Below, in pieces: positions 56,297-61,288 of a DNA stretch of 64,000 nucleotides (position 1 is its first letter; the number at the start of each line of letters is the position of its first letter). The notes under the pieces were generated by a model. The model was not told where the DNA came from and did not search any database. It saw nothing but the letters and a program-made list of their open reading frames with translations. The DNA lies in IMG/VR virus record IMGVR_UViG_3300032116_000002; one strand, written 5' to 3'. The position numbers were made by a program, and so were the translations under genes. This DNA comes from a virus. Taxonomy: Duplodnaviria > Caudoviricetes.

Positions 56297-58207
56297 TTAA
56301 TTAGTTTCTTTTACTTCTGCGTCTACTACATTAGGATCACCTTCTGCTTTTTGTGCGTTTGGATCACCTTCTGGCATTTCTTTATTGCGCTTTTCTGCTT
56401 CATATGTAATAGTTTTGCGATATAGTTCACCGAGTTCTTCAGTGGCTTTGTCCATATCTTCTTTACTATCACCTTTAGCAACTTCTTTGTATTTACTAAT
56501 ACTATCAAGCATTGAAGTTTTTTCTTCTTCAGGAATATAGCCTTCAAGATTTTCAATTTGCTTTTCAAGCATACCAATTTGATTATCCAAACTGTTACGT
56601 GCTTGTACAAGTTCTACAACCTTTTTATCTTCCTCAGCATTTAACTCAGCGTCTTTGACCATTTGTTCAATTTCTTGTTCAGATAATCCAGAACTTGCTT
56701 TGATAGTAATTTGCTTTTCTTTGTTAGTTTTCTTGTCAAGAGCCTTAACTGATAGTATACCATTTGCGTCAATGTCAAATGTTACTTCAATCTGTGGCAT
56801 GCCTCTTGGTGCAGGATCAATGCCCTCTAGTGTAAACTCACCTAGTCCTTTGTTACCTACAACAATTTCACGTTCACCTTGGAAAACTTTAATTGTAACA
56901 GCAGGCTGATTATCGTCTGCTGTACTAAAAGTTTGGCTTGCCTTTGTAGGAATCGTTGTATTCTTTTTGATAAGTTTAGTCATAACACCACCTAGTGTTT
57001 CAATACCTAAACTTAAAGGTGTAACATCCAACAACAGAACATCAGTGCGATCACCACCTAAGACTTGACCTTGAAGTGCAGCACCAACTGCAACTGCTTC
57101 ATCAGGGTTTACATCTTTACGAGGTGCCTTACCAAAAAACTTTTCTACTGCTTCTTGTACTCTTGGCATGCGAGTCATACCACCAACAAGAATCACTTCA
57201 TCAATATCACTGATACTTACACCAGCGTCTTTGATTGCAACTTCACAAGGCTTAATGCTACGTTGAATTAACTCTTCAACCAAACCTTCTAATTTAGCAC
57301 GTGTGATTTTAACGTTAAGATGCTTTGGTCCTGTTGCATCAGCAGTGATATAAGGTAAGCTTACATCAGTCTGTGTTGAACTTGATAGTTCAATCTTAGC
57401 ACGTTCTGCTGCATCTTTAAGTCTTTGTAATGCTAATACATCTTTAGTTAAATCTACACCACTTTCTTTTTTGAACTCATCAACTAGATGATCCATAATT
57501 CTTTGGTCAAAATCTTCACCACCTAAAAATGTATCACCGTTAGTTGATAATACTTCAAATTGTTTTTCACCTTCGACATTAGCAATATCAATAATACTAA
57601 TGTCAAATGTTCCACCACCTAAGTCATAGACAGCAATTTTTCGGTCCTTCTTGTCCTGTTTGTCTACACCGTAAGCTAATGCTGCCGCTGTAGGTTCGTT
57701 AATAATACGCAATACTTCCAGACCCGCAATGCGTCCTGCGTCTTTAGTTGCTTGTCTTTGACTATCATTAAAATATGCTGGAACTGTAATAACAGCCTTT
57801 GTGACTTCTTCACCTAAGAAATCTTCTGCTGTCTTTTTCATTTTACGCAAAACTTCAGCACTGATTTGTGGAGGTGCTAGTTTCTTGTCATTCACTTCTA
57901 CCCAAGCATCACCGTTATCTGCTTCTACAATCTTATATGGCATTAGATCGATATCTTTTTGGACTGCTTGTTCTTTGAATTTGCGCCCAATCAATCTCTT
58001 TGATGCATACACCGTGTTCTTTGGATTAGTAACAGCTTGACGCTTAGCTGGCGCGCCAACAACGATTTCACCGTCCTGCATGTAGGCGATAATGCTTGGG
58101 GTAGTTCTTGCACCCTCGCTGTTCTCTAATACTTTTGGATTTTTGCCATCTATGATAGCAACGCATGAATTGGTAGTACCTAGGTCAATACCTATAATCT
58201 TTGACAT
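56297..58207 (-). CDS. dnaK: Hsp70 chaperone DnaK
   Basis: [31 protein letters not shown]. Confidence 0.98.
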
Positions 58208-59946: not shown

Positions 59947-60648
59947 ATGCATATACATATATTTGGTCACAGCATTTGTGCCAGAGCAGGTTGGAAACAT
60001 GACAAACCCGAACCTGATCTATTTGTTGATAGATTAATTAAAAAATATAATATACCTAAATCAAACTATCACGCTGTTAATCAAGGCAGTGAAGAAAGAA
60101 TATTATATTTTTTAAAAAAAGTTAAAAAGATTGACTTGGCGATAATCTTCCATGGCACTCCGCAACATTTCTTTTGTCCTGCGTGGTCTAGTGATTTTCA
60201 TTTAGTAGACCAAGACAAATATTGGGAAAATGATTACCCCAGAGATTTGTATTACATGCCTGAAATACTAAAAGATAAACCAAAAGAACCTAATCCTGAT
60301 ATAATATTAGATAAGAAAAATTATCAAAAATCATATGAAAATTTTGTAAAACACTTTTATACACCTGAATTAAATCGCAATAGACACTATGGCGCATTAA
60401 TTCAAATTGATCAATATTTAAATCACAAAAAAATACATGCAATTCATTGTGTACTAAAAAACACATTACCAACTTGGTTCGAGTTTAGTAATGGTATAGT
60501 AGACAATGAACTTGCAGAGTTGCAAAAACAAAACAGTAAGTTCTATACCGGACCTCAAAACAGCGGCAATTTAATCAGTGAAGAAGGTAATATCTACATT
60601 GCTAACAAACTTACTGATTACATAGAACAATTAACTGGCTGGGGATGA
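59947..60648 (+). CDS. hypothetical protein (SGNH-like fold possible)
   Basis: IFGHSIC start, QGSEERI, N..SEEGN end. Confidence 0.65.
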   Translation: MHIHIFGHSICARAGWKHDKPEPDLFVDRLIKKYNIPKSNYHAVNQGSEERILYFLKKVKKIDLAIIFHGTPQHFFCPAWSSDFHLVDQDKYWENDYPRDLYYMPEILKDKPKEPNPDIILDKKNYQKSYENFVKHFYTPELNRNRHYGALIQIDQYLNHKKIHAIHCVLKNTLPTWFEFSNGIVDNELAELQKQNSKFYTGPQNSGNLISEEGNIYIANKLTDYIEQLTGWG

Positions 60649-60711
60649 TGGACTCGAACCACCGAATGTCGGAATCAAAATCCGATGCCTTACCAACTTG
60701 GCGAATCCCCA
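60636..60711 (-). tRNA. tRNA-Gln(UUG)
   Basis: Cloverleaf. Confidence 0.94.
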
Positions 60712-60712
60712 A

Positions 60713-60862
60713 TTAACTTGGTATTACTTTTGGTATATACGGTACATTTCTAGGACCATGTCTTTGCTCAAATAACATACGTGCTTCCTGTAAATCTTTA
60801 GCATAGACACGATCTTTAATATCACCTTGCGGTGTTCTTACTGTAGTTTCATACATTGGCAT
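60713..60862 (-). CDS. 49-aa hypothetical protein (not in ORF track)
   Basis: AAGGAG RBS; MPMYETTVRTPQG... Confidence 0.65.
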   Translation of the reverse strand: MPMYETTVRTPQGDIKDRVYAKDLQEARMLFEQRHGPRNVPYIPKVIPS

Positions 60863-60880: not shown

Positions 60881-60908
60881 AAGAAAAGGTAGCTAAGCTA
60901 CCCTTTTC
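60881..60908 (-). terminator. intrinsic terminator 3' of pqqA
   Basis: GGTAGC-TTA-GCTACC followed by TTTTCTT. Confidence 0.8.
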
Positions 60909-60932
60909 ATTATGTTGATTGAAAATCACTGA

Positions 60933-61004
60933 TTAGCGATTTGCAATGTACATAGTGATTTCAAAACCAAAACGCATATCAGTTGCACTAGGTGTTGTCC
61001 ACAT
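60933..61004 (-). CDS. pqqA: PQQ cofactor precursor peptide PqqA (23 aa, not in ORF track)
   Basis: MWTTPSATDMRFGFEITMYIANR with E-x3-Y core; AAAGGAG RBS. Confidence 0.93.
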   Translation of the reverse strand: MWTTPSATDMRFGFEITMYIANR

Positions 61005-61024
61005 GTTACTCTCCTTTGAATTTA

Positions 61025-61083
61025 AAATACATGTACTGCACATGTATTTAAGAGATTGTACAACACAAAAATGGTACTGTCTA
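61025..61083 (-). promoter_or_regulatory. pqqA promoter and 5' hairpin
   Basis: TAGACA (61083-78), 17-bp spacer, TACAAT (61060-55); AAATACATGT/ACATGTATTT 10-bp hairpin. Confidence 0.7.
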
Positions 61084-61125
61084 TACGCATAGTATTGAAC
61101 GATAGCTAGTGAAAATCATTAAACT

Positions 61126-61217
61126 TACCATATAGAAACACATTCCTGGATTGTCGTAAAACCCTCCATAGCCCCGAGCGCCATTATTTTTATATTCGAA
61201 TGTGTTTTTATATGGTA
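61126..61217 (-). repeat. 20-bp inverted repeat overlapping tRNA-Lys 3' end
   Basis: TACCATATAGAAACACATTC / GAATGTGTTTTTATATGGTA, one mismatch. Confidence 0.7.
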
Positions 61218-61288
61218 GGGGCACAGAGATTCGAACTCTGGACACACGGATTAAAAGTCCGCTGCTCTACCTACTGAGCTATACCCCC
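61213..61288 (-). tRNA. tRNA-Lys(UUU)
   Basis: Cloverleaf. Confidence 0.95.

Follow-up and report, generated by a model that had tools for sequence, protein, structure and literature searches.

The window analysed here, a stretch of 64,000 nucleotides from a virus contig of 117.8 kb, encodes on its minus strand a genuine PqqA, the precursor peptide of the cofactor PQQ, in a 72-nt gene that stands alone on the contig, is conserved in other phages and shares its regulatory architecture with the pqqA genes of bacterial hosts. From sequence comparisons, the gene is likely to be a functional pqqA of host origin that acts as a minimal auxiliary metabolic gene of a freshwater jumbo phage and feeds the PQQ pathway of the host. 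The cassette that contains it would be a captured orphan pqqA locus of a host, kept under selection.

Identity of the gene and anatomy of its cassette

The product, MWTTPSATDMRFGFEITMYIANR, scored 40.7 bits (E 1.4e-10) on TIGR02107 in a search of the NCBIfam HMMs and 41.3 bits on PF08042 in a search of the Pfam HMMs, for which the PqqA family cut-offs are 20 bits and 21.1 bits, respectively, and the same ORF was the single PqqA match when the 117.8-kb contig was searched in all six frames (E 2.6e-10). The E-x3-Y motif, whose Glu and Tyr provide the atoms of PQQ, is present as Glu15 and Tyr19 within ...GFEITMY..., and the peptide also has W-x-x-P, a length within the range of about 20-40 aa typical of PqqA and every conserved PqqA position, so that the PqqA pattern recognized in the preliminary description of this DNA is borne out by both family models. 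A longer reading of 36 amino acids from an ATG at 61043 was rejected, as this start lies inside the 5' hairpin, has no Shine-Dalgarno site and is used by no homologue.

Table 1. Features of the pqqA region (window coordinates)
Feature	Position	Strand	Description
pqqA	61004..60933	minus	23 codons + TAA; product MWTTPSATDMRFGFEITMYIANR; Glu15/Tyr19 are the cross-link pair
pqq box	61122..61106	minus	TTAATGATTTTCACTAG; 17-bp imperfect palindrome, centre 110 nt upstream of ATG
sigma-70-type promoter (predicted)	61083..61055	minus	TAGACA-17-TACAAT; promoter scan, 10/12 matches
5' UTR hairpin	61049..61025	minus	11 pairs, one of them G-U, around a loop of 3 nt; minimum-energy fold agrees with centroid fold
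Shine-Dalgarno site	61017..61011	minus	AAAGGAG, 6 nt 5' of ATG; read directly
Intrinsic terminator	~60908..60881	minus	10-pair G+C-containing hairpin GGTAGC-TTA-GCTACC, then TTTTCTT
tRNA-Lys(ttt)	61213..61288	minus	ARAGORN; neighbour upstream of the cassette
tRNA-Gln(ttg)	60636..60711	minus	ARAGORN; neighbour downstream, beyond a 49-aa ORF

The gene belongs to a cassette of about 240 bp that consists of a box, a promoter, a 5' hairpin, a Shine-Dalgarno site, the 23-codon ORF and a terminator (Table 1). The 72-nt ORF and the features that had been described around it (a sigma-70 promoter, a 5' hairpin, an AAAGGAG ribosome-binding site and a U-tailed terminator) were all recovered in place, with 11 pairs in the hairpin. 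The promoter match alone is not significant, since a scan of 1 kb gave one promoter-like site versus 2.9 by chance; the predicted promoter is credible because it aligns with the host pqqA promoters, ATAG...(C/T)GTA(C/T)(A/T)AT, at an equal distance from the box. In this alignment the -35 region, the -10 region and the position of the hairpin all match the host pqqA promoters. A stable fold of the 5' UTR (defined as z < -1.64), expected for 5% of pqqA loci, occurs in 41% of the viral loci and 30% of those of hosts, with sequences that differ, and the 3' flank is structured in 73% of viral versus 94% of host loci. The predicted 185-nt transcript of the window has a fold z of -3.9, beating 200 of 200 shuffles. 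Most homologous ORFs are preceded by sites of the AGGAG/AAGGA type, and a few by the weaker cores GGA or GGG. Between the pqqA terminator and tRNA-Gln is an ORF of 49 aa (60713-60862, minus), which has a TAAGGAG site of its own.

The gene had been described as lying inside a tRNA array, which is correct for this locus, flanked as it is by tRNA-Lys and tRNA-Gln, but does not extend to phage pqqA in general: a tRNA gene is found within 500 nt of pqqA at three of 120 viral loci (among the matches listed), and in the larger relative G001 (see below) pqqA is outside the main tRNA array. On these grounds the position in the array was rejected as a part of the system; it is a trait of this phage group.

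Distribution and conservation of pqqA in phages

A tblastn search of 50,697 phage records with the peptide matched P19250A (a phage of LD28), Venkman, MEP301, MEP401/402, four Melnitz isolates (Melnitz infects OM43) and an uncultured freshwater podovirus. A complete ORF with a Shine-Dalgarno site and 34-41 bits on TIGR02107 is present in P19250A, Venkman, MEP301, MEP402, Melnitz and the uncultured complete genome ctXG6705, and MEP401 has the tblastn match only. The preliminary description had suggested that gene callers miss such a gene, and in all six records (five cultured, one uncultured) it is either unannotated, as in P19250A, Venkman, MEP301 and MEP402, or passed over in favour of a gene called on the opposite strand, as in Melnitz and ctXG6705. 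In Melnitz (MZ577097.1), pqqA is on the plus strand at ~76134-76208, directly before tRNA-Leu, and the record annotates a hypothetical protein (gene 152) opposite it. Two tblastn matches in 'Acinetobacter phage MD-2021a' (CAKLQF020000010.1) were discarded, as they belong to a complete pqqABCDE operon next to ppk and the sequence resembles a bacterial chromosome.

A search with a degenerate DNA pattern for an 11-residue core of the peptide extended the distribution to at least 120 IMG/VR contigs with pqqA. All 120 of the viral matches listed have an intact ORF of 23-25 aa. Trp2, Pro5 and the position of the stop codon, which the pattern left free, are invariant in these 120 copies, and Pro5 is encoded by four different codons among them; Glu15 and Tyr19 are also invariant in the 120 listed homologues, at positions that the pattern constrained. 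No pqqB-E genes were found in the flanks of the 120 listed loci. Among the copies found, the closest nucleotide relatives of the window ORF are viral (61/72 identical positions versus 57/72 for the closest bacterial copy). Rarer types of PqqA also occur on viral contigs, with ten contigs of a DLRLGLEVTLY-like class and one of an alphaproteobacterial type, and the core of the Pseudomonas/Acinetobacter type (DLRIGFEVTMY) had no match in 2.9 million IMG/VR contigs. Other-type viral PqqA peptides are encoded by stand-alone ORFs on IMG/VR contigs, with no pqqB-E in their flanks; examples are MWKKPEFVDLRLGLEVTLYISNR, which we take to be enterobacterial, and MKWSAPIVQEVCVGMEVTSYESAEIDTFN, presumably of Methylobacterium type.

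In bacterial genomes the core pattern is found mainly in Methylophilaceae, and also in Methylophaga, Burkholderia/Caballeronia, Limnobacter, Rhodoferax and some methanotrophs. The peptide of the window is a mosaic, with an N-terminal half like those of Methylophilaceae and a C-terminal half like those of Limnobacter, Rhodoferax and other Burkholderiales, in agreement with the Burkholderiales-type sequence noted at the outset. The window also encodes a full DnaK/Hsp70 (56300-58207, minus; 851 bits), the best listed matches of which, across about 200 genomes of the order that contains Methylopumilus, are 67-77% identical, so that this protein does not discriminate the host. Methylophilaceae have 3-12 copies of pqqA and a single pqqBCDEFG (Beck et al. 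2014, PMC4109929). Orphan pqqA genes unlinked to pqqBCDE account for 81 of 120 bacterial loci; because these bacterial copies are also unlinked, the lack of linkage does not disqualify the phage gene.

A host orphan pqqA could have been gained by illegitimate recombination and be a neutral passenger that has not yet decayed and is useless to the phage. The cassette is host-like down to its operator and promoter and tiny enough to be cheap to carry, and its expression from the phage genome is a prediction. This reading is nevertheless unlikely. The 120 listed viral copies are all intact, and the codons for their invariant residues vary synonymously; phages of unrelated families have the gene, some of them with genomes of 35-44 kb and little room to spare; and the nearest copies found to that of the window are viral, not bacterial.

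A candidate operator in common with host pqqA genes

The upstream regions of host pqqA genes contain a 17-bp palindrome with the consensus CT(C/A)ATGA-WWW-TCAT(G/T)AG, termed here the pqq box, of which a search of the accessible literature found no published description. On a matrix built from the boxes upstream of host pqqA genes, the site upstream of the phage gene, TTAATGATTTTCACTAG, scores 15.0 bits, compared with 13.9 bits for the 99th percentile of the host background, and is the top-scoring site across the 117.8-kb contig. Of the upstream regions, 53 of 120 from hosts and 34 of 109 from viruses have a box above the 99th background percentile, the centre of which has a median position of -119 in the former and -83 in the latter. 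The phage locus has the arrangement of a host-type pqqA regulon, namely a box about 105-125 nt upstream of the start codon followed by a (C/T)GTA(C/T)(A/T)AT -10 element.

Genome-wide scans of three Methylophilaceae (Ca. Methylopumilus universalis, Methylobacillus flagellatus and Methylophilaceae KH-45) found 3-5 distinct sites per genome, and a control with the reversed pattern found 0, 0 and 1 sites. All exact matches are located 106-122 nt upstream of a pqqA, and therefore the box is specific to pqq genes. In M. flagellatus, three of three sites are upstream of pqqA; Methylopumilus has one further site about 1 kb upstream of pqqC. We take the core of the box, ATGA-N3-TCAT, to resemble the E. 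coli Fur consensus; a general Fur/iron box was rejected as its identity, as there are only 3-5 sites per genome, the exact matches are all at pqqA, an imperfect site precedes the pqqB-C region and a few further imperfect sites are unassigned. The similarity of boxes, promoters and spacing suggests that the phage pqqA is probably under the control of the regulator that acts on host pqqA genes. A second box, TAAATGAAAATCACTAG, is found at 60188-60204 of the window (minus; 14.9 bits), about 900 nt from the first. It lies within an oppositely oriented ORF of 233 aa (59947-60648) and is not followed by a pqqA-like ORF; these two sites are the only ones above 11 bits in the 117.8 kb.

The same box lends itself to a reading in which the cassette is a decoy, present in many copies that titrate the box regulator, or with a peptide that ties up PqqD/PqqE, such that PQQ synthesis is rewired and not fed. 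The top pqq box of the contig lies at pqqA with the second 900 nt away, and the specificity of the box for pqq genes in host genomes would suit a titrating role. A decoy is very unlikely, because no conserved PqqA position is lost from the peptide, which retains Glu15 and Tyr19 and should be a substrate, not an inhibitor, and because a strong box is found with 34 of 109 viral copies, whereas the ORF is found with all.

Stand-alone status and phage origin

In reverse orientation, the window corresponds to G000:C1:20805-84804, part of an IMG/VR virus record 117,813 bp long, which has a G+C content of 36.6% and is estimated by CheckV to be 33% complete. It contains 24 tRNA genes (ARAGORN), tail-fibre proteins (PHROGs) and DnaK. 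A 356,312-bp IMG/VR record, G001, which is 96% complete, has a dnaK with 71% nucleotide identity and much of the same tRNA array, and therefore the contig is part of a jumbo phage genome. When phage records were searched with the region by megablast, only tRNA genes matched, in E. coli phages. Elsewhere on the contig, G000:C1:16917-18357 encodes an AhpC-like peroxiredoxin, with a CMD/AhpD-like protein two genes on. The phage origin assigned in the preliminary description agrees with the tail fibres, the 24 tRNAs and the virus record, and the existence of cultured carriers adds to the case that this is a host-derived metabolic gene on a genuine virus genome.

No pqqB-E genes had been seen in the window, and none was found on the whole 117.8-kb contig (33% complete by estimate), where PqqB, PqqC, PqqD and PQQ-dependent or methanol dehydrogenases are absent and the scores of the radical SAM ORFs against the PqqE model (TIGR02109) are 22-25 bits, compared with a cut-off of 381. 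PqqC, PqqD and a true PqqE are also absent from G001 and from G005, a 66-kb genome that is 100% complete, each of which has exactly one pqqA. Searches for PqqC were positive in five of five candidate host genomes, so that the negative results for PqqC in the phages carry weight. The absence of pqqB-E partners from the phage makes the gene dependent on the PqqBCDE of the host. Partner genes could be located in the absent part of the contig, given its completeness and the identity of only 71% between its dnaK and that of G001.

Six radical SAM ORFs form a 9-kb block (G000:C1:6269-15251) about 5.5-14.5 kb beyond the end of the window. Two of them (444 and 470 aa) match the twitch-domain family NF033640 at 325 and 400 bits, and in these two the SPASM/twitch part precedes the radical SAM core. 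Among the neighbours of the block are one ORF with a weak likeness to GT2 and one with a weak likeness to carbamoyltransferases. The radical SAM genes of the contig are not PqqE, which is a new point here. If the peptide were instead the substrate of these six enzymes, 9-17 kb away, it would become some modified peptide other than PQQ, and the two ORFs of the twitch/SPASM type, common among peptide maturases, lend the idea some appeal. It is highly improbable: the likeness to PqqE is that of a generic core (22-25 bits versus 381), no PqqD/RRE domain was found on the contig, the cluster and pqqA are on opposite sides of the tRNA array, the complete 66-kb G005 has pqqA and no PqqE-like match, and the 5-kb stretches around pqqA of P19250A, Venkman and MEP301 have no annotated radical SAM gene.

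The 801 nt around pqqA, including both flanking tRNAs, recur with hardly any change in 14 DNA metagenome runs, most of which have a freshwater or lake-water label, each with at least 91% of the sampled words of this region, which argues against a chimera at pqqA. That the locus is host chromosome or an assembly chimera, as its host-like gene and promoter might suggest and as the preliminary description had allowed for, is thus a negligible prospect, the more so as tail-fibre genes and the 24-tRNA array are on the same contig and the 356-kb relative G001 also has one pqqA.

Proposed role and relation to known systems

With the phage gene as a source of precursor, the host RNA polymerase would transcribe pqqA, host PqqD would bind the peptide, and PqqE would cross-link Glu15 to Tyr19, as in the established route to PQQ; a protease, PqqB and PqqC would then complete the cofactor. 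The extra peptide would keep the periplasmic PQQ-dependent methanol/alcohol dehydrogenases charged, and these would provide energy and C1 carbon for phage replication. One peptide is spent per PQQ, whereas PqqB-E are catalytic, so that the precursor would be the one component to run out if host transcription falls during infection and, being consumed one per cofactor, would be the component worth carrying. PQQ itself is a stable cofactor, and some hosts take up external PQQ. We infer that the gene is expressed in infection, that its product is processed to PQQ and that the phage benefits. RNA-library contigs from three studies, assembled sequences and not stranded reads, overlap the ORF and cover parts of the cassette and also the promoter region (60944-61053, 60997-61156 and others); they disregard the ends of the predicted transcript and may represent read-through from a tRNA operon or carried-over DNA.

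Resupply of the precursor fits the gene dosage of Methylophilaceae, with 3-12 pqqA versus one pqqBCDEFG (PMC4109929), and it fits the link between phage pqqA and phage-borne methanol dehydrogenase (PMC7678222). One such case is G004 (IMGVR_UViG_3300025120_009955), a 72-kb phage fragment in which a full-length PQQ-dependent methanol/ethanol dehydrogenase (C1:34049-35731; 628-aa frame, 608 bits on TIGR03075) is 6 kb from pqqA (C1:41890-41952).

The phage gene resembles the canonical pqqABCDE(F) operons of Klebsiella, Methylorubrum and Acinetobacter in its matches to the family HMMs, its length, W-x-x-P and E-x3-Y, but differs from them in having no linked pqqB-E. A closer likeness is to the orphan pqqA genes of Methylophilaceae (PMC4109929), with which it has in common the type of peptide, a monocistronic arrangement, its own promoter, a 3' hairpin and a box at equal distance; unlike these copies, it is on a phage genome, lies between tRNA genes and encodes a mosaic peptide. 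For the proposed role there is an analogy in psbA (D1) of cyanophages, with which the phage resupplies a fast-consumed component of the energy system of the host while the host keeps the remaining machinery. In place of a protein subunit, the phage pqqA would supply a 23-aa precursor that is consumed in cofactor synthesis.

Viral PqqA and the resupply hypothesis are already published: Coutinho et al. 2020 (Microbiome 8:163, PMC7678222) reported PqqA in phages of Lake Baikal Methylophilaceae (VP_266) and proposed the same function. Those phages are like the present one in having a stand-alone PqqA in a large freshwater phage of a methylotroph with ~35% G+C, and a related contig has a methanol dehydrogenase, as does G004. 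That study gives neither the anatomy of the cassette nor an operator box, both of which are described here; it ties phage radical SAM genes of a generic kind to the synthesis of PQQ, whereas such genes fail the PqqE test here; and it states that P19250A is without these genes, whereas an intact pqqA was found in P19250A. The Melnitz paper does not mention pqqA, and viral pqqA was listed once more in 2026. What is new is the breadth of the distribution, at least 120 IMG/VR contigs and cultured Methylophilales phages in which the gene had been missed, together with a putative pqq-specific operator common to hosts and phages.

Significance for phages of methylotrophs

Standard annotation misses pqqA, and surveys of viral metabolic genes therefore under-count it. 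It is possible, although offered tentatively, that stand-alone pqqA is a signature gene of the phages of PQQ-dependent methylotrophs, overlooked in every cultured Methylophilales lineage found and perhaps plugged into the pqqA/pqqB operator. If this is true, the phage pqqA would respond to the signal by which the host registers its demand for PQQ and, at 72 nt, would rank with the smallest auxiliary metabolic genes and provide a cheap marker for the prediction of methylotroph hosts. Several pqqA phages are cultured with their hosts, namely Venkman and Melnitz on Methylophilales H5P1, P19250A on IMCC19250 and MEP301 on FZCC2181, which already puts the hypothesis within reach of bench work; the culture medium as published includes 1 nM PQQ. 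The pqq box offers a handle on the regulator of PQQ synthesis in Methylophilaceae. Major consumers of methanol include the Methylophilaceae (marine OM43, lake-dwelling LD28/Methylopumilus), whose methanol dehydrogenases are PQQ-dependent. If resupply of the PQQ precursor by their phages is routine, infection would have a direct effect on the oxidation of methanol in surface waters.
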